NCBI GenBank assembly: GCA_951406725.2
Contig: OX597817.1
Location: forward strand, 108,314,001-108,378,000
Direction: 5' to 3'
Length of the DNA stretch: 64,000 bases
From: Octopus vulgaris
Taxonomy: Eukaryota
Shown here: positions 11,131 to 40,962 of the stretch, piece by piece
Layout: the number at the start of each line of letters is the position of its first letter
Position numbering within the stretch: the stretch's first letter is position 1
Notes under the pieces: generated by a model
The model's input: the letters and a program-made list of their open reading frames with translations, nothing else
What the model was told of the DNA's origin: nothing
Database searches by the model: none
Translations under genes and position numbers: made by a program

Positions 11131-13277
11131 TTATTATTATTTTTGCTTGTCGTGAGCTGAGTTGAATTGCTGTCATTTCTTCTTTAGTGGACACTAAAAT
11201 GAAATATTTTTATAAATAGAAATTTAAGTTGATTAGTATTATTGCTATCAACTGCTGAAGGCTGATTCAATATATTAACAATATTCTTTTTTGCAATACT
11301 GTCTGTTATTTTCTTTTTAATGAAACATGGAGAAACAAGTGGGGAGACCAAGCAGTTGGATAACTTCATAGAGAAAAAAATAGAAGAAATATTCATATTC
11401 AATTTTCTGTAATAACATTTAATTTCTCTAAGAACTGAAAACTGTATAAAGCAATTATCATTAACCATGAAATGTAGTGTCTAGTAACATCAAGTTTAAT
11501 CATCAGAAACTTAGCAACAAAGAAAATTGGAAAAAGTTTAATATGTTAGTGTTCTTATTGATCCTGCAAAATTTGATATAAAAATTTAGAACTTAATAAA
11601 TAAAGTTTTACTATATAGTGTGTTATGTACTTCTCATGAAAGTTGTGACAACAGCTAGTAATGCATATCTAATGTGTGTGTGTTCTTCATTCGAAAGGTT
11701 TTGCAGTCACAGATCTCTTTCTATGAGACATGAAAGTTGAGTATTGAGAGCTGCTACAATGGGTTCCAGCAAGCCAATATTTTTAAATGTAATTTAGGCA
11801 TTAATTTAAACCAGTTGAATCTTGTTTCCCTTGATTGTCCAAAGCAGAGTTCTCTTCAGAGGGCATTCCAAAAGGTATTTTAAATAAAAGGCAGAAAATT
11901 TGTAAAATCTATTACAATTGCTTTTCTTATGAAAGAATCTGAAATTTCATGCCTAGCTTTCAGTTGCTATGACCATGTGACAATGTATAAGAGTGAGTGT
12001 GTGAGGGGGTAAGTGAAGGCTATGTTTTAAAGGTGAATCAGATACTATACACGCACATTAAAAAAAAATGGAAAAATAGGATTCTCCAAATTTCCAGTAT
12101 GTTGTCTGAATTTATAAAAATAGCCCTTACTGTGATATGCTTAAAGTGTGATCTTTGTCATGTCCTCACCATCATATATAACATTTAACGTAACTATCAG
12201 CCAAGACAACTCCATAGCAGTCATATTTTTGTATGTACTTTAAACTTGGGCTGAATACTTAACTGAATGAACCAAATTTCATACATTTACTAGGATTTTG
12301 ATACTTGGATGTTTCATTAGACAACCATCTTAAAATATTATTCTAATATTTATCATAGGTAAAAAAATACTGTCACAGGCTTTAGTATAGAAACTATGTA
12401 CTACTCGAAAATAAAACCAATAAATAACACACTGTAAGCTATTGACCTACAATGCTCAAGCACACTATAGATAGATATTTGAGAACTTTTGTATTCTGAT
12501 TTATTTATTTTGTATTTTTATTATCTCCCATTTCTCGCAGTTTCCTAGAAAGTGCTGCACAAGAGTGGAGCTTATTTTCAGGATCATTTAGTTGAGAGTT
12601 ACCTGATACTGTCTCTTTCACAATATACTTGTCAATATTACAATGATTATGCAGCTTATAAACATTGATGTTTAAGAAGACACAGAATATTATTGGTGAT
12701 GGGTATAATCTACTGATTATCAGAAAAAAAAAAAAAAAAATTAGCTGCCAACTATCTTTGAATGAGTTTATGGTAATTTGGTGGCACTGAGTCCAAGAAT
12801 GACCTCTGTTTTTGAAATAATGGATTTCCTTCAAATTATAATGTTGTCCTAATATGACATATAAGGGTGTTTCTGAGTTCTATTAAAATGTTGGCTAGAA
12901 GTTAAGTCAGGTAAGTTTAGGTCAGAGGTCATAATAATTTGATATTCAGCAAATCAGTCAGTCAGGAATTCCTAGGTGAGAATGCCATATTTGATAAAAA
13001 CGTTGAATCATGTAACTTTACTAACATATTTGTTGACATATAAAGCAAGGACTCTTATCCACATATCTTTCTCTTCTACATTGTTATTTAACTTTTATTG
13101 GAGACCTGACTTTAAAAATTGTCTATGAAGTTAATAATTGTTTTTTAAAACTTATTTTTTTGGTAGATAAAGAATTAAATATAAAACAAGTAGAAAGATA
13201 TATTTTTCAATGCATAAATACTGATAGAACAGCAAATATAGGACAAAATCCTTTAAAAGCAGAAAAATTTGTCAGCA

Positions 13278-13349
13278 ACCAGCCATGAGGATCAAACTCA
13301 CAGCCCTCTGATTTACGGTCAGAGTACTCTACCTTTAAGCTATACTGCT
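13278..13349 (-). pseudogene. tRNA-like sequence (degenerate; GTA in anticodon position)
   Basis: A box tagcttaaaggtagag, stem-loop tctga-ccgtaaa-tcaga, T arm gtgag-tttgatc-ctcat. The acceptor stem is imperfect. Confidence 0.65.
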
Positions 13350-13608: not shown

Positions 13609-13680
13609 AGCAGTTTAGCTTGAAGGTAGAGCACTCTGATTGGAAATTAGAGGGGTGTGAGTTCAATCCTCAATGCTGGT
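13609..13680 (+). pseudogene. tRNA-like sequence, inverted copy of 13278-13349
   Basis: tagcttgaaggtagagcactctgattggaaattagag..gagttcaatcctc. Confidence 0.6.
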
Positions 13681-15498
13681 TGCTGAAAAATGTTTCTGCT
13701 CTTAAAGGATTTTATCCTATATATGTTGTTCTATCAGTATTTATGCATTGAAAAATATATTTTTCTACTTGTTCCACAATACATTTCAACACTTACGCTT
13801 GTTTACATATGATGTATTTAAATATAAGTTCATCATGAAGAACCTGTTTGAGCAATCCAGATGTTCAAACATCTGCTATGTCTGTGGCAAAAGTGCTATA
13901 GAAAAGCATAGAAAAATATCATTGACTTTTAAAACAAACACATTTTCCTTATTTTGGAGTAAAGCTTGGAAATCAATTACAAGTCATGGGTTCCCATAAT
14001 GTATGCAAAACTTGTATATATCCTTCTCAGATGTGAAGAAATGGAAAAAGAAAAAAAATTAAAGATAGTGAATTTATGCTTGGACAGCAAAATGGGTACT
14101 TTCATGTACTTATAGGATAATAGAGCAAAGCAAGATCCTTGAGAAAAAGTGACATGGTCTTCAAGGGAGACTGTGGCCATTGAGACAGCAAATATCGTTA
14201 ATGAATCATTAGTTCAAAGAACAAACATCAATCTCTTTCCCCTCCATATCAAAGCAGGGCGGATGAAGGATTTTGTTAAAACTTTGGACAAAGATGATTA
14301 TTGCTTCACTATCTTTGCAGAACGTTCCTGGACTTGAAAAATTAAAAGGTAAAATATTTACTGGTTTTCATATTTGTAAACTTATCAAAGATTCTAGTTT
14401 TCCAAATATATATAAATGATGTTGACATTTCTGCTTGGGACACTCATGTCTCAGTTATTGAGAATTTCTTGGGTAACAAGAAAGCAGACAATTCTGAGGA
14501 ATTTATGGAAAGGCTGCTCAATGGGTTAAAAATACTGCTGCTAATTTGAACATAAAAATACATTTCTTCCATAACCACTTGGGCAGATTTCCAGAGAGGA
14601 ACAAGGGGAGAGGTTCTACCAGGATATTAAGGTAATGGAAGAAAGATATGAAGGCAGATGACACAGATACCTGATAGCAGACCACTACTGGAACATTCAG
14701 TGTGAATGTCATGCTAAACCACACAAAAGAAAATAATACAAATAGTGTGGTTTGAAGGATTGATTGATATATTTTAATGCACTTAATTAGCCAATGTTAC
14801 TGAATTATCTTATATATTATAATTGCATAAGATACCATAAAATGTTTTGAGCTTATTCCCATGATTTTTAGTGCTATGACACAGTGAATAATTTAGGTAT
14901 TTTATGTCAATGTGTTCTGATTGCCCTTAATATGAAATGTATCAGATGACCTAATATCTAAAAATCAATTCAGTAACTAGTGTATATCATAAAAATGTTA
15001 GGGGTCTCAGAAGGCTAAGCTTATCAAATTCTCAAGTATGAAAGTCATCGATTATGTCAAAAACTAGAGCCAATCTAGCAAAACTGATGCCTTGTTCAGA
15101 TTCAGCATCCAAATTCACTTCCAGGTCACTCAAATAACTTTGGTAATGAAAATAATATTGACCAGTATCCTGTATTATCAATAGTAAATTCTTTGTTGTC
15201 ACTCAAGACCAAAGAGAGAGAGAGAGAGAGAGGGAGAGAGAAAGAGAGAAGAGAGCTAACCACTTCACTTCTCTTAAAAACGTCAAAATTTAATTTTATA
15301 AGTTAGTTTACAAACTTAGAAATTTATAAGGCTGACTTAGCAGAATCCCAATACCAAAAAAACAAAACAAACAAACAAAAAAAAAAATTATAAACTCCTT
15401 TGAATTGGATACAGACATGATATATTTTCGTTCTAGTTTCTGTAGGATTAAACTAAATATTACCTGTCATGGCCACTTACATTACTCATGAATTGATC

Positions 15499-19983: not shown

Positions 19984-21760
19984 GTATGTATATGTATTTG
20001 TATAAAGGTGTTGGTGTGTTTATGTCTGTGAAACTTAGCAGTCCAGCAAAAGAACACACATACACTTGTATGTATTTATGTGTGTAACTGTGTGTGTATA
20101 CAGGTGTTTGTTTTTATGTGAAGTTTTATACACATGAGCTGTTAAACAGATCGAAGGATCACTCAATAGCGTTTAGTGCAGTGCCATTTTTTAAGGCTTA
20201 GAAGGAAAAGTTTAATAGTGACTTCGAAGTTTTGGTTTGTATACCATTAACGCTCTGATGACCTTTAGTAAGCCAAAATTCGAGGGCACTATCAAACTCT
20301 TCCTACTTTCTAGCAAACACACACTCACACGTACACCCCCCCACAAATAGATATACATACATACATACATACATACATACACACACTCAAAATTACGTAG
20401 TACTTAATAAAACGAGTAGTTTTTCAAAACTTTCCTTTTGTGTTTCGTTTTATCTTTGAGTTGTTTTATCCTCCTTATTACTGCCCACACTCCACAATTA
20501 TTTTTAATGACTTACTCATGTGCTTTATTAGTTTATTTTTTCTGTTTCTCTCAATTTCTGTGTACATTTTCCCCACATTTTCCTCTTAATCAAATCTACA
20601 TTGGTTGCCTTTTCATATTTCCTATTGTCCTCATCAAACACTTCCATATGCCTAGATTTCTTTTTTCCTCTTTTACTCTCTCTAATTTCCTTTCTCGTTC
20701 TCTATAATTTTTTTTTAGATATTTACTCTTTGTCTATACGTTTGTTACTTTATCACTTTAAATCTTTTTCTTTAAGTATTACAGAGCTCTCAAATCTTTC
20801 CACCTCTTCTCTCTTACGCCATCTCTTCCTTTGTCACTCTTTTTTCATCTCTTACAGTATTTTACTGTTAGCTGGCATTACTGTTATATCACAAACCTCT
20901 CACTGCTATTTATTTCCCTCTCTTCCTCTTCCACTCTGTCAATATTCCACCTTTATAAATTTATAAATGTAACCTACTTTATAATACTCTCCTTCTTTGT
21001 TTCATTTCTTTCAGCACAACCACTGATTTCTCTTTCTAACGTGGGAGTATGACAGAACTCAGGAAAAACAAAAGAAATTGAAAATCTAAAAAGAATACAA
21101 AAACAAAAAGATTTGTGTGTGATTTGGTGTTTTAGATATTAAGAGTGATAATTACTTTGCACAATACAAGAGTGCATATTTTCAGAAATCACGTTAATTC
21201 GCTAAGCTGGTTATCCAAATCTACTACGTAAAACTTTTAGATAATATTGATTTTTGAAACTGGCAAAGAGCCATGCATTTGAGGACAGGGTATATACGTA
21301 TACTCGATACTATATGGTTGGGGCTTTATTTGATTGACTAGAAAAGGTTGAAAGACGAAGTTGACATTGGTGGTATTTGTTCTCAGAATGTAAAGAAGAA
21401 ATAATTAATACCGCAAGTCATTTTGTTCAACACTCAAACGATTCTACAAATCTATCGCTTGGCTCGATAATATTAATAGATTCTTTCGCGTTTAAACTGA
21501 CCTGACTCATAGGATCAAATTTAGAATACAAAGGAAATAGGTATTGGTTAGCAACAATAAATCTCTAGGTGAGTTTATAGAAGAGTTGATCTTTAAAGCT
21601 ATGACCGCAAGAATTGAAAAAAACCAACCATTTTTCTCTAATGGACCCTTCAGGTAGAAAGAAAGTTGTGCTGTTGCTTGGATTGTGAGCAGTCTACATA
21701 TATCTATCTATCAAATACCGTTATTATCTTTACTGTATATACTTTATTTTCATTTTAATA

Positions 21761-22157
21761 TCCTTTTTCTAAAAAAAGCACAAGGCCTGAAATTTTGGGA
21801 GAGAGGCTAGTCGATTATATCGACACCAGTACTCAACTGGTACTTATTTTATCGACCCCGAAAGAATGAAAGACAAAGTCGACCTCAGCGGAATTTGAAC
21901 TCGCAACGTGCAGACGGACGAAATACCTATTTCTTTACTACCCACAAGGGCTAAACACAGAGAGGACAAACAAGGACAGACAAACGGATTAAGTCGATTA
22001 TATCGATCCCAGTGCGTAACTGGTACTTATTTAATCGACCCCGAAAGGATGAAACGCAAAGTCGACCTCGGCGAAATTTGAACTCAGAACGTAGCGGCAG
22101 ACGAAATACCGCAAAGCATTTCGCCCGTCGTGCTAACGATTCTGCCAGCTCAGCACC
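21761..22157 (-). mobile_element. SINE family B composite: head + Tx1-tailed unit + standard body
   Basis: Two copies of the gacgaaatacc junction (~21918 and ~22100). Flanking TSD-like tttattttc[a/g]tttta[a/t]ta at 21743-21760 and 22158-22175. Confidence 0.9.
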
Positions 22158-23070
22158 TTTATTTTCGTTTTATTATCGTGGTTATTTTTATAAGCTCTTG
22201 ATTGTTTATCTTTTATCTTTCACTTGTTTTGGTCATTGGATTGCGGCCATGCTGGAGCATTGCCTTGAAAAGTTTAGCCGAACAAATCAACCTCAGTACT
22301 TATCTTTTTTAAGCCTGTTACTTAGTATATCCGTCGCTTTTTGCCGAACCGCAAATTTACGGGACAAACCGACATCGGTGGAGTTCAAAAACAAGACTTA
22401 ACAGTTCACTTCTTTTGTTCAAGCTATTACTGAGTTGTGAAGGCCTATGCACGCGGCTAAGTGTCTTTTATGCAAATATAAGCCTCCTTGAATTTCGTTC
22501 TGGTTCAAAGGAAAAACAAAACAAAACAAAAACAAAACAAAAAATAAAAAAAAAACAGCAAAAAATAAACAAAGAAAAAACAAAAAACAAACAAAATTGG
22601 TTTCGAAATGTTTAATTAATAGATTTTATGGATATATATTATAATATGTGTGGATGCATGTGTATGTGTGCTTATAAGTATGTATGCGTATGTGAATATG
22701 TATACATGAATATATAGTTCTCTGTGTATATGTGTGTGTATGAGTGTGTATATGTGTATGTATGTATCTGCACAGGCACATACAAAATGAATACGCATTG
22801 ATTAAAAGTACTATTTAAAAGTATTAATTTATAACATAGCTTAAACAGCAACGCAATTTCATGACTTCGCTTGCATGGAGTTTAAAACGAGAACCAGAAG
22901 TGAAATCAAAAGCGTGAGCAAATGTTTTTAAAGAAAAGCTAGTAGTAGTGTAATTCAATGGAGATGAGAGTAGACCATGTGCTTAGAACCTAAATATTGC
23001 TTGGAGACACATGGCATGTTATAAAAACCTGCCTAGACCCGCGTCTCGGATGCATGAAGCGATTAGTATA

Positions 23071-31147: not shown

Positions 31148-31630
31148 TTTCAAAGATAGCTGGGTGTGATTCAACAGTGATTGGTTGGTATTTCTAGTAG
31201 GTCCAGTGACCACATGAAAGCCTTTGTATTTTTCGAGTCACCTAATTTCCGGTTTGATGGATGAGGCACAGCCAATTTTTTTTCTTTGATAAACAATATT
31301 ACTGGCAACTAGAGTTGTCTTTAATGAAGAATTAATTTAAATTACATTTGACAGGTGAAAACAGTTGTCTTCTAATCTGACTCAGTATGTGTCAAACGGA
31401 ATAATTTTTCATTTGCTCTCGTCTTTTTATAAGATGGAAAAGAAAATAATGTTTTAGGAAGTTACTGCTGTAATGTCTTTACCCACAGGTCTCTTTATTT
31501 AGAAAGTGTAGCAAATTAGCTCACATTTATCATAAGTTATTGGGTTAAAAAAGAAGCTTTATATATTATAATTTAAAAAAAAAGTATTTTACCGGTAAAA
31601 GATGTCAGAAATCAATATTAGCGTTAGAGG

Positions 31631-32229
31631 TAAGGCGGCGAGCTGGCAGAAATGTTAGCGCGTCGAGCGAGATGCTTAGCGGTATTTCGTCTGCCGTTAC
31701 GTTCTGAGTTCAAATTCCGTTGAGGTCGACTTTGCCTTTCATCCTTTCGGGGTCGATTAAATAAGTACCAGTTACGCATTGGGGTCGATGTAATCGACTT
31801 AATCCGTTTGTCAGTCCTTGTTGGTCCCCTCTATGTTTAGCCCCTTGTGGATAATAAAGAAATAGGTATTTCGTCTGTTTTTATGTTCTGAGTTCAAATT
31901 CCGCCGAGGTCGTCTTTGACTTTCATCCTTTTCGGGGTCGATAAATTAAGTACCAGTTACGAACTGGGGTAGATATAATCAACTGGCATCCTCCCACCCT
32001 AAATTTCGGGCCTTGTGCCTAGAGTAGAAAAGAATCATCAGCTCGCCGAGCAAAAGGCTTAGCGGAATTTCGTCCGTCTTTACGTTCTTGGTTCAAATGC
32101 TGCTGGAGTTGACTTTTCCCTTTCATTCTTTCAAGGTCGATACAATATATGCCAGTCTAACACTGGGGCCAATTTAATCGATATATCCCCTTTCCTGGAA
32201 CTGCTGGCCATGTGCCAAAATTTGAAACT
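31631..32229 (+). mobile_element. SINE family B triple composite
   Basis: Head, 184-bp unit, standard body/tail, then a head-clipped third copy. Outer TSD aatatta[gcg/act]ttagag at 31614-31629 and 32230-32245. Confidence 0.9.
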
Positions 32230-33550
32230 AATATTAACTTTAGAGCTCAATAATCAATATACTGTTATTTAATCTCTAGGTTAGTCCTGATCGAACAGAA
32301 TAATCAAAAGTAACTAATTCCATGACCATCCCATTTTTTCCAGGAATAGTGTAATCCGGAGTATATTATTCAGCGTGTCGTTTCTATTTCTGTGATTAAT
32401 AGTGTGCTATTTGAAAGAGATTTGGCTGCCATTTTAATGTTTACCTGTGGAATGGCAGATGATGGCAGAATCGGTAAATTGCCGAACAAAATACTTCGTA
32501 ATATTTAGTTATTTTGCATAGTGACTACGAATCGTGTCAATGTTGATTTTTATTTCATCTTTGCCGGGTTCACAAAATATGTCCCAGTTAGGTGCTGTGA
32601 CCCAGTTTATAATTCAGAGAAGGGAGAAAAAAGGTGGAGAGATCGAAACTATAGGACAGTTTCGGTATTTAGTCTCGAAATTCAAAGTTCATTAATCCCA
32701 GTTACAGGCTTCATAAAACAAGTATGAGCGATGCACTGAATCCTACCGTTTACGTTCCAAGTTCAAATCCACTGAGGTTAACACTTCACTCTCTTTGGGT
32801 TCCACGAAATGAATACCTGTCATGTACTAAAGTTAATCTAATCGACTTTACACTTTTTCCAAAATTTTTAGGTTTGTGCCAGCATAGCCTTTATGTCGTC
32901 ACTCGATCTGCCACAAATAGCAGCCGAATTTCGCTCAAATAATATACCCAAAGAGAAAAAAATAATACCTTGGATAATGTAATCTTAGATATATTATGAA
33001 ATAGAAACCATAGAAATAAGAAACGGGTAAACAGAGATGGGATACACTTAAGCATAGTCGAATACATTTAAGCTTATGTCAGTCGAAGCTGACATAAGCT
33101 AAGCAACATCTACATCAATGCCGATGTTTAACCTGCGGAAACGGCAAAATGCTTTTATAGTTTTTTTCTTTGTTTCGTTTGGTATTTTCAGAGTCTGAAT
33201 TCAAATCATATCTCGATCGATTGCGCTTTTCATCTGTTTGGAGAGATGAAATATGTACCAATAATAAATTGATTCAATCTCCTTCACAGTTCTACTTGCT
33301 CCTAAGTTAACTTATAATGCGTGGAGTGTTGCAGATCATGGTTTAATCATTTGACGATCAGAAATTGTGACAGAGTTTCGATTCTCGATTGAAGCCAGTT
33401 CTCTCTACATGTGTTGCTTATCCTTTTCCCTCTTATATCTAGCCTTAAGATATCCAATTTTAAATTTCAAATTATTTTGCGAGCCGTTAAGAGAATAGTA
33501 AGGGTGAGGCAAGTGGCTACGAAACTCCTCGGATTAATTGAAACAACAAA

Positions 33551-34530
33551 AGCAGTGAGCTAGCAGAAACGTTAGCACGCCGGGCGAAATGCTTAGCGGT
33601 ATTTCGTCTGCCGTTACGTTGTGAGTTCAAATTCCGCAGAGGTCGACTGTACCTTTCATCCTTTCGGGGTCGATAAATTAAGTACCAGTTACACACTGGG
33701 GTCGATGTAATCGACTTAATACCTATGTCTGTCCTTGTCTGTCCCCTCTATGTTTAGCCCCTTGTGGATAATAAAGAAATAGGTATTTCGTCTGTTTTTA
33801 TGTTCTGAGTTCAAATTCTGCCGAAGTCGACTTTGCCTTTCATCCTTTCGGGGTCGATAAATTAAGTACCAGTTACGCACTGGGGTCGATATAATCGACT
33901 TCATCCGTTTGTCTGTCTTTGTTTGTCCTCTCTGTGTGTAGTCCCTTGTGGGCAGTAAAGAAATAGATATTTCGTCTGCCGCTACATTCTGAGTTCAAAT
34001 TCCGCAGAGGTCGTCTTTGCCTTTCATCCTTTCGGGGTCGATAAAATAAGTACCAGTTACGCACTGGGGTCGATATAACCGACTTAATTCATTTGTCTGT
34101 CCTTGTTTGTCTCCTCTGTGTTTAGCCCCTTGTGGGTAGTAAAGAAATGGGTAATTCGTCTGTTTTTATGTTCTGAGTTCAAATTCCGCCGAAGTCGACT
34201 TTGCCTTTCATCCTTTCGGGGTCGATAAATTAAGTACCAGTTACGCACTGGGGTCGATGTAATCGACTTAATCTTTTTGTCTGTCCCTGCTTGTCCCCTC
34301 TATATTTAACCCCTTGTGGGCAATAAAGAAATAAGAATCATTAGCACGCAGGACAAAATACTGAGCGGCATTTCGTTCGTCTTTACGTTCTGAGTTCAAA
34401 TTCCCCTGAGGCCGACTTTACCTTTCATCCTTTCGGGTTCGATAATAAGTACCAGTTGAGCATCGGGGTCGATGTAATCGACTTACCCCTCCCACCAAAA
34501 ATGCTGATCTTGTGCCAAAATTTGAAATCA
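33551..34530 (+). repeat. SINE family B array: one head + four 184-bp tandem units + head-clipped standard copy
   Basis: Unit starts (gtatttcgtc or variant) at 33599, 33783, 33967 and 34151, an exact 184-bp period. Confidence 0.95.
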
Positions 34531-35157
34531 ATAATAGAAATGACAGCTATAAAAGGCACCAAAAACGTGTCATGTAATATTAAAACAAAATTATCTATTA
34601 CAGTTAAATTACCTATTAGAAATAGCTACTAAATCAGACCGCCTTACCTAAAAAAATATAGATCCACTTTGTATTATGTAGAATGCATTGCCTGGAACGA
34701 AATGGAATAGTCATTGCTGGAACGCTTCGACCATAGTTAGACATAGAGTCTTAAATATCTCTAAAAAAAAAAAAAACGGAAAGAACACGACGTTAGCATC
34801 TTTCGTCACTCATCAGTCAGGACTGACCAGGTGCTAAGCAGCAATAACAATAAAGATTTTTTTTCAATTAGCGATTTACAGAGTACGGAACTTCCTACAA
34901 CGAACTAATTTACTTTGATCTTAGTTTTCATTTAAGGTACATGACGGCATGAGCGTAAACCATATGTCTAAGTTGAAAATACTAATATCAATGCCCAATT
35001 ACTTTCTACAGATTTCACATTGGTGCAGATGTCATTCGTATCTTGGGCAATCATGCACACCGTCAATTTTGAGCAGCTCTTTATGTCGTTATCTCACCTT
35101 GCTCATTTGTATCATGCGTTCATGGTAATTTTTGTCGCCGACTAATCATCTTTATTA

Positions 35158-38727: not shown

Positions 38728-40962
38728 TTGGAGAGGGCAATGAGTCAACGACGGTACTGGACTTTAGTTCGTACCTGGATGGCTTGCCGCGGCTCTCGGC
38801 AGCTGACACGAAGCTATGTGAAAGACCGATAACAATCGCTGAAATTTGGGAGGTGATGAGCGATTGCACAAGTTTGCAGATCGCCCGGTTTGGATTGGTT
38901 TGCCCTTCGGGTTCTATGTATTCATGCCAGATTTGTTTGGCGACCTCTTGGCAGATGTCTACTGCAACTGGTAACCGAAAGAGAGGATTACTAGTGCTGT
39001 TAGCAGAGGTGTGGTGACACTGCTGAGGAAAGACGCCGACAATGGGGATGTACTAGAGAATTTTTGGCCCATAAATCTGTTAAACACAGAGTTTAAGATT
39101 TTGGCCAAGGTGTTAGCGAAAAGCTTGGCGCTCGTCGCCGGTAGCCTGGTCGGAGAAACGCAAACGTGCGCAATCCCGAGTAGGTCTATCCCTGACAACC
39201 TCCACCTTATGTGATACGTCATAGAGTGGGCCGGGGCCACAGCTGGTTTCGAGGGTGCTCTGAACAATTTGGACCAATCAAAAGCATTCGATAGGATCGA
39301 CAATCGCTATTTGAAAGCCGTCCTGAAAGCAGGCAGCTCCGGGCCCGTTTTCAGCGACTGGATCGCTGCAATGCGCAGCGGCACCTGTTCAGTGGTCAAA
39401 GTAAACGGCCACCGATCGGATCCGTTTGGCGTCGCACACTCGGTCCATCAGGGATGCCCGCTTTCGCTTCTTCTATATGTGTTGGCACTCGAGCCACAAT
39501 TCCAGAAGCTGGAACAGCTAAGGGGCATCCCATTTAACAAATCGGTTGGTTTGCGGTTGGGCTCCTGGGGAGACAGGACGATGCCGTGAAATGGTGAGGC
39601 GGTCATTCTGTTGCCAGCATCCTCTGAGTGGCAGATTAGGTATACTGTGGCTCCTATTGCACAGACACGCGCTTAGGTTATGCAACCTGAAACGATTTCT
39701 GGAGCGTGTGTGGGCTCCGTTTGTGAGGCTCGTCTTACCTCAGCTCGTCTCCCAGACGGAGCAGCAGTTCTGGGTGAAGAAAAGACTGAGACTGGGCACC
39801 TGGGAACTAGAATGTCGTCAGGAGCCTACAGCCCTCTACCAACGGAATCGGTGGATGTTCCGCTTTAGAAATTTATAGAGGATTAGTGGCGGGGAAGTGC
39901 GACGACGTTCTCAGAGAGACTCTGGGCGCCAACGAGAACGAGCTGGCTAGTCTGATCCAGAGGACTTTCCGGTCGGGAACTATCATGGATAATTTCCAGA
40001 TGTCCTTGGTCTGGCAGTGCTACTGGGGGGCGCTACCGGTTCGAGATAAACTCTGCAGGCACGGTTGTGCTGTCAGACGGACTTGTCCGAGGTAGCGAAA
40101 CCATTCTGTACGCCCACGGTCAGTGTCCGGGATTGCTGACTTGTGGTATGTTGAACTACTGGCGGCGAGCTGGCAGAAACGTTAGCACGCCGGGCGAAAT
40201 GCTTTGCGGTATTTCGTCCACCGTTACGGTCTGAGTTCAAATTCCGCCGAGGTTGACTTTGCCTTTCATCCTTTCGGGGTCGATTAAATAAGTACCAGTT
40301 ACGCACTGAGGTCGATATAATCGACTTAATCCGTGTGTCTGTCCTTGGTTGTCCTCTCTGTGTTTAGCCCCTTGTGGGTAGTAAAGAAATAGGTATGTTG
40401 AACTACTGCTGTCATGTGTGGGACGGATCCGCCGTCCTCCTTCAATCGGGCAGGCAAGGCAGTTTTCCTTTGCCTGGTGGCTGTAGCGAAAGAGGTTGTT
40501 TGATGGACAAGGCTGAGAGGCAAGAGGACAGACATATTCCTCTTTGGTAGAGCTCTCATTGACTTTTTCAAGTCTCACTTGAGAAGGAAATTGAGAGTGG
40601 GGAGGGAAGTGCTGTTCTTGAGTGAGTTTATCGAAAGGTGGGTGACGGTTGCAAAAATGGCAAGAGTGGATGGTACTTCTCTAAGTGTGAGTCGGAGAGA
40701 AGGAATTGGAGAAGGCACTTGCACCTAGGACTCCTCGATTATCTTTTGAGGTTTTCCTGTATCGGGGGGGGGGGGCATCTCTATCATCCCCACCTTTTTG
40801 TTTATACCTTTGTATGCTATGCACATGTCCCTTCTTTTCCAGTGTATACCCTCTATACTTTAATTTTTTTTATTATTTCATTACTATATGTAACCCCCTG
40901 CGCTTTATGTCTGTCTCTGTATTGTCCCCCTCATCCTTCACCCTTGTGGTAAATAAATGAAA
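38728..40962 (+). mobile_element. Tx1/L1-clade LINE, 5'-truncated and internally deleted
   Basis: NFWPINLLNTEFKILAKVLA, DQSKAFDRID, SVHQGCPLSLLLYVLALEP. The YADD region is missing. The 3' tail runs into (ATC)(TTC)n(TTA)n. Confidence 0.92.
40162..40391 (+). mobile_element. Young SINE family B variant with Tx1-like tail (head + one unit)
   Basis: Perfect 17-bp TSD ggtatgttgaactactg at 40145-40161 and 40392-40408. Confidence 0.95.

Follow-up and report, generated by a model that had tools for sequence, protein, structure and literature searches.

How does a SINE come to carry a tandem array inside a copy of itself? The question is raised by a locus in the stretch of Octopus vulgaris DNA analysed here (contig OX597817.1, positions 108,314,001 to 108,378,000; 64,000 nt, referred to as the window), where one head is followed by four 184-bp units and, from position 14 on, by an older body (33552-34529, the focal array; Table 1). 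A reading of the letters without database searches (the sequence-only reading) had described one tRNA-like head, four exact 184-bp units and a head-clipped standard copy, and this description was borne out: TRF returned a period of 184 with 4.0 copies and 86% matches, and the unit junctions were located, reading AAAGAAATA joined to GGTATTTCG except for the variants GATAT at junction 2 and ATG joined to GGTAAT at junction 3. The same head-unit-body layout was confirmed at 21761-22157 and 31631-32229, each with a diverged TSD, as was the claim that a free monomer at 40162 had inserted at a ggtat target with a perfect TSD. The TSD finder made no TSD call for the focal array.

Table 1. Features of the focal array and of other SINE copies in the window
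Feature	Positions	Strand	Remarks
Candidate left TSD of old resident, weak	33533..33548	+	16 bp, 4 mismatches against 34530-34545
Single mosaic head, SINE positions 1-46	33552..33597	+	differences from young consensus
Unit 1, young subfamily V, positions 47-230	33598..33781	+	B-box-like motif, shared core, LINE-like tail
78-bp tract identical to 31824-31901	33741..33818	+	spans junction; likely local gene conversion
Unit 2, V tail	33782..33965	+	starts TCTGTTTTTATG with T5 run
Unit 3, subfamily V	33966..34149	+	
Unit 4, sister subfamily V'	34150..34333	+	tail CAATAAAGAAATA then AGAAT, joined to resident position 14
Old resident body, subfamily S1	34334..34529	+	position 14 to tail CCAAAATTTGAAATC
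Candidate right TSD, weak	34530..34545	+	pairs with 33533..33548
Dimer: head, V unit, S3-type body from 47	21741..22177	-	TSD 2 mismatches in 21
Neighbour: TSD, head, V unit, S2 body from 47, S1 body from 14, TSD	31614..32245	+	TSD 2 mismatches in 16; two nested older bodies inside
Free V monomer (40162-40391) with TSDs	40145..40408	+	perfect 17-bp TSD beginning GGTAT

Copies of the element in a random sample of the 2.8-Gb genome (160 stretches of 10 kb; 227 contigs) have head and core in common and differ in their tails (V, V' and S1-S4). Non-CpG core divergence of free copies was 3.8% for V (n = 44), 7.2% for S2 (n = 15), 10.1% for S3 (n = 26) and 11.9% for S1 (n = 50). The SINE is 230 bp long, exact V tails number 67,054 genome-wide, and a TSD was detected in 22 of 33 free V copies (median 16.5 bp); the family is thus short, high-copy, dispersed, non-coding and TSD-flanked, as a tRNA-derived SINE is. 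A- and B-box-like motifs are visible, judged, like the A-box-like motif near bases 10-20 of the focal head, against what we take to be the consensus; ARAGORN made no call on these SINE copies, nor did Rfam return a tRNA match. Elsewhere in the window, ARAGORN called a tRNA-Tyr (13277-13349, minus strand) and a tRNA-Ser (13609-13681, plus strand). The SINE is presumably OR1-like, and may resemble the CORE-SINE OR1 with its CORE central domain.

Young units are joined to older copies at fixed points, GGTAT (position 47) and AGAAT/AGAAA (position 14), the latter used by the sister subfamily with a different tail. Exact 25-mers joining a V tail to position 47 occurred 26,982 times genome-wide, exact junctions into S3-type starts 404 times and into S1/S3-type starts 172 times, and one variant of the V'-to-14 junction 315 times, all with reversed controls of 0; junctions are not at random positions, in keeping with the sequence-only reading. 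The random sample contained 84 V-type units, of which 26 run on into position 47 or 14 (20 V into 47, one V into 14, five V' into 14), with 51 continuing into other DNA and seven unassigned. A V tail precedes 25 of 151 SINE sites, compared with 12 of 2,343 other GGTAT sites and none of 309 other GGTATTT sites. GGTAT alone is therefore insufficient for the preference, the SINE site standing approximately 30-fold above other GGTAT sites, so that the earlier proposal of priming at ggtat/agaat motifs inside SINEs holds for the fixed sites and the preference for resident copies but not for the motif as such. The preference may stem from a site-specific nuclease that recognises a longer stretch, or from completion aided by homology. 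At the start of their TSD, free V insertions with a TSD (29 of 58) favoured GGTAT, at 59-86% per base. Junctions with resident heads, near 14-18 or 39, were seen for the S2 subfamily too (tail AGAAAAGAAT; L050, L078 and window position 32030), and hence tails other than V also target the head.

Comparison of the first unit with the last body, at loci mostly chosen by exact patterns and thus biased toward well-kept junctions, revealed an age gap in arrays ending in the oldest subfamilies. Non-CpG core divergence was 4.5 vs 11.9% in S1-ended arrays (last body older in 17 of 19) and 3.5 vs 9.0% in S3-ended arrays (13 of 15), the S1 and S3 last bodies being as old as free copies. No gap was seen for S2 last bodies (5.5 vs 6.2%, 14/26, p = 0.53). 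Outer TSDs, located in 8 of 22 arrays ending in S1, S3 or S4 (a small sample), carried 14 mismatches in 130 positions, significantly more than those of free V copies (22/33 found, 12/351 mismatches, p = 0.003) and not different from those of free S1/S3 copies (14/40 found, 33/248 mismatches, p = 0.52); elements with low-complexity flanks had been dropped, and shuffled pairs gave 5/93 false calls. Oldest-type last bodies and outer TSDs were thus about three times more diverged than young units, and the expectation of an outer SINE and TSD older than the inner units held for S1/S3-ended arrays and for TSDs, but not for S2. Age polarity between first and last V units was weak (28 vs 14 of 47, p = 0.08), and private mutations shared just past the junction were not above shuffles overall, with one clear case (L233). 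At both neighbouring loci compared in related organisms, contigs ended inside the SINE and bridged no array; one such contig held the S2 tail and S1 body of the 31631 locus without bridging the V unit, and raw reads of one related organism gave almost no cover at the compared loci.

A minority of copies are two-headed: among 134 nested first units, 6 retain the head of the resident together with a duplicated stretch from 47 and a full new head, one of them (L203) with mismatched types, and 115 exact two-head patterns were counted genome-wide. Since junctions are fixed, last bodies of the oldest types and outer TSDs are older, and two-headed copies carry an internal TSD, the arrays are, for the most part, the product of serial insertion into resident copies. 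At G000:C10:17996023-17996504, a two-headed insertion has expanded into a head-only minisatellite of eight 64-bp repeats in tandem, each made up of SINE head and TSD.

Had arrays grown by plain local tandem duplication, or by unequal exchange between GGTATTTCG direct repeats as proposed for SINE-derived satellites, adjacent units would be each other's closest relatives, an outcome that the sequence-only reading had named as evidence against itself. This was so in a minority only: about 8 of 87 neighbours were near-identical yet diverged from the consensus (L293, L288, L289, L262, L168), and neighbouring V units differed by 6.9% vs 8.2% for random pairs. However, across seven subtype columns 72 of the 87 neighbours show one difference or more, 45 of them three or more, and V-to-S1/S2/S3 joints are impossible by that route. 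Local duplication is a secondary process, contradicted as the main route by the mixed-subfamily arrays, and as the origin of the arrays we hold it to be highly unlikely. A segmental duplication accounts for L223-L225, three four-unit arrays on C1 that are identical and lie within 150 kb; they were counted once.

The focal array itself bears conversion-like tracts. Its units share 86-91% identity among themselves and 86-90% with the monomer at 40162, being about as unlike one another as random young copies; the homogeneous units of an sSat were absent here, as among the differing neighbours above, and were seen only in cases like L293. Units 2 and 4 have rare variants in common, the start of unit 2 with its T5 run recurs in unit 4 and at 31865, and the GGATAAT variant was found at 2 of 142 junctions, both of them in the window. 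Judging by its identity, the 78-bp tract across junction 1 likely arose by conversion with the neighbour at 31635. Because of this tract and the variants shared by units 2 and 4, both of which speak for local exchange, the focal array is not a pure insertion stack.

Which head survives was examined in chains joined at position 47 of an old resident, at loci that were again mostly pattern-selected; of 44 such chains, four were dropped as possible truncations and 40 kept. At bases 10-17, array heads were 8.1% diverged, compared with 2.5% in free V (p = 0.0008) and 7.5% in free S copies, while at bases 19-46 they were 5.8% diverged, compared with 6.6% in free V and 15.4% in free S; at bases 3-9 the value fell no more than in between (11.8%, p = 0.29 vs V). 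In age, bases 10-17 of the head go with the resident and bases 19-46 with the newcomer, which means that the newcomer usually brings its own head and the resident loses approximately bases 18-46. The focal head fits this mosaic pattern: it departs from the young consensus three times within bases 1-11 and not at all in bases 12-69, and it bears the young-type GAAAC/GGGCG while the resident body is old-type. The notion of a headless newcomer was mostly not upheld: from about base 18 onward the head that remains belongs to the newcomer, and the incoming copy was near full length. Resolution of the 5' end by homology survives in so far as joining is in register with the resident head; it is the resident, not the newcomer, that loses its head.

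A later loss could leave a similar structure. If a full-length insertion with TSD first produced two adjacent heads, one of them might subsequently be lost by recombination between heads, and both the two-headed copies and some late crossovers (33A in 8/40 and 56C in 6/40 array heads, a minority) agree with this. Yet crossovers crowd before base 19 instead of spreading over bases 1-62, and the resident share of bases 19-46 was -0.10 (-0.51 to 0.18) where uniform later collapse predicts 0.48. Moreover, approximately 95% of insertions would need to have collapsed within the age of the young family, and tandem heads can persist and even expand, as in the eight 64-bp repeats on C10. We regard this explanation as unlikely. 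Slightly less likely still is that arrays were made at the RNA or reverse transcription level, by template switching at GGTAT or remobilisation of whole composites, and inserted as one piece. In keeping with such a route, heads are mostly of the young type from base 19 on, perfect 15-bp TSDs flank two arrays whose head is clearly young (L270, L277), S2 bodies show no age gap, and pol III could read through the V unit, which lacks a T4 run. The old bases 10-17, the old outer TSDs, the S1/S3 bodies as old as free copies and the two-headed copies with a resident-type internal TSD run against it.

We consider it probable that young copies were inserted singly by LINE-driven TPRT at position 47 or 14 of older copies, with head pairing leaving mostly the new head. 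A LINE partner with a tail resembling the V tail would drive the insertion, beginning with a bottom-strand nick at the GGTAT of the resident SINE. The new cDNA would then invade, or pair with, the upstream head of the resident, forming a cDNA/target heteroduplex as proposed for R2, and second-strand priming would occur near bases 11-18 or, in some cases, further on, as far as the TSD zone at 47-66. Insertions of this kind, repeated in series, may build the short tandem arrays, with later local duplication or conversion presumably lengthening or blending a minority of them, the focal one included. The rare two-headed copies carry an ordinary internal TSD and parallel R2 in the absence of a heteroduplex.

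Tail similarity is compatible with such a partner. Over approximately 40-55 nt, the V tail is 78-86% alike to the 3' ends of LINE-like elements in the random sample, and two of eight ORFs scanned upstream of those ends encode RVT_1 (L035) and an endonuclease (L148), the best PDB match of a LINE-like ORF being human L1 ORF2p. The tail thus appears to be shared with LINEs through relatives rather than through an exact partner: nothing recurrent was found among the 100 of 529 matches listed for a LINE with the exact V tail, and the random sample contained no LINE at SINE position 47. LINE-like 3' ends related to the V tail and followed by (TATC)n-like repeats (L035, L042, L111, L136, L148) are those of a microsatellite-associated LINE family. 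Approximately 3 kb upstream of one LINE-like tail, an open frame of 334 aa encodes a full protein kinase domain (L136:1824-2825).

The sequence-only reading had offered a second origin, rolling reverse transcription of a 184-nt circular RNA in the manner of a retrozyme. It would account only for the exact period and the fixed junction, and did not stand up. Neighbouring units belong to different subtypes (the 72 of 87 above), free TSD-flanked monomers end at the same base, and no hammerhead ribozyme was found in the 184-bp unit by core motif (CTGANGA absent on both strands), Rfam (no ribozyme at E up to 10) or folding (z = -0.72), which makes a circular template most improbable.

Heads reading CGTAGCCGTAT, with C at position 47, numbered 17,209 genome-wide, and only 246 V-to-CGTAT junctions were counted (0.9% of the G form), which suggests that the C47 subfamily is rarely hit as a target. 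The low count may alternatively reflect the youth of this subfamily, or the RNA end overwriting base 47. The idea that C47 heads never lead arrays proved wrong, since 7 of 40 array heads carry C47. Tentatively, and with somewhat more doubt than confidence, an insertion could be seen as overwriting the decayed promoter of the resident with a fresh in-register one, the C47 subfamily having largely escaped, in an intra-family arms race.

Related behaviour has been described for other elements. According to the available text of PMC4494074, crocodilian SINEU-3/Tx1-Mar targets a Mariner element and its full tandem copies sandwich a TSD; strong preference for a site in a repeat and sequential tandem insertion are common to both systems, but the octopus SINE targets its own head, of which the second copy is usually lost in register. 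In the accessible portions of PMC3774820 and PMC11331408, homology to the upstream target at the 5' end of R2 RNA gives seamless junctions via a cDNA/target heteroduplex, with occasional tandem duplications, resembling the two-headed octopus copies, when the heteroduplex fails to form. R2 is an autonomous element with 28S rDNA as target, and its homology arises from co-transcription, whereas in the octopus SINE the homology lies in the head of the passenger itself and target sites are scattered over many thousands of copies. Squamate sSat likewise consists of tandem units that are part of a SINE inside SINE loci; the sections seen of PMC10702118 attribute it to unequal recombination and mention same-locus insertion in passing, and the octopus arrays differ in being short, mixed in subfamily and age-layered. 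By description, the element is also like the octopus OR1/OR2 CORE-SINEs (tRNA-like head, shared central domain, exchangeable tails), of whose self-nesting the available part of PMC4824008 makes no mention. A search of mostly open-access literature, with the original OR1/OR2 reports outside its scope, gave no description of octopus SINE self-nesting.

These junctions would represent tens of thousands of natural records of non-LTR cDNA 5' joining to homologous upstream DNA; of all steps of retrotransposition this is the one least understood, and it bears on R2-type gene insertion tools. If this is true, old SINE copies gain new promoters, and composite copies mix ages, so that repeat dating and the calling of subfamilies may be biased; dispersed SINEs would also have a route towards tandem repeats. 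Two further types of 5' junction were observed. SINEs inserted just upstream of older SINEs were seen at L111, L163 and L135, the duplication at L111 extending approximately 40 bp into the head of the downstream resident, a second form of homology-set 5' junction. In addition, 5'-truncated V copies were joined via GTCTG microhomology between target duplication and V tail at L226, G000:C1:33586745 and C2:131445845.
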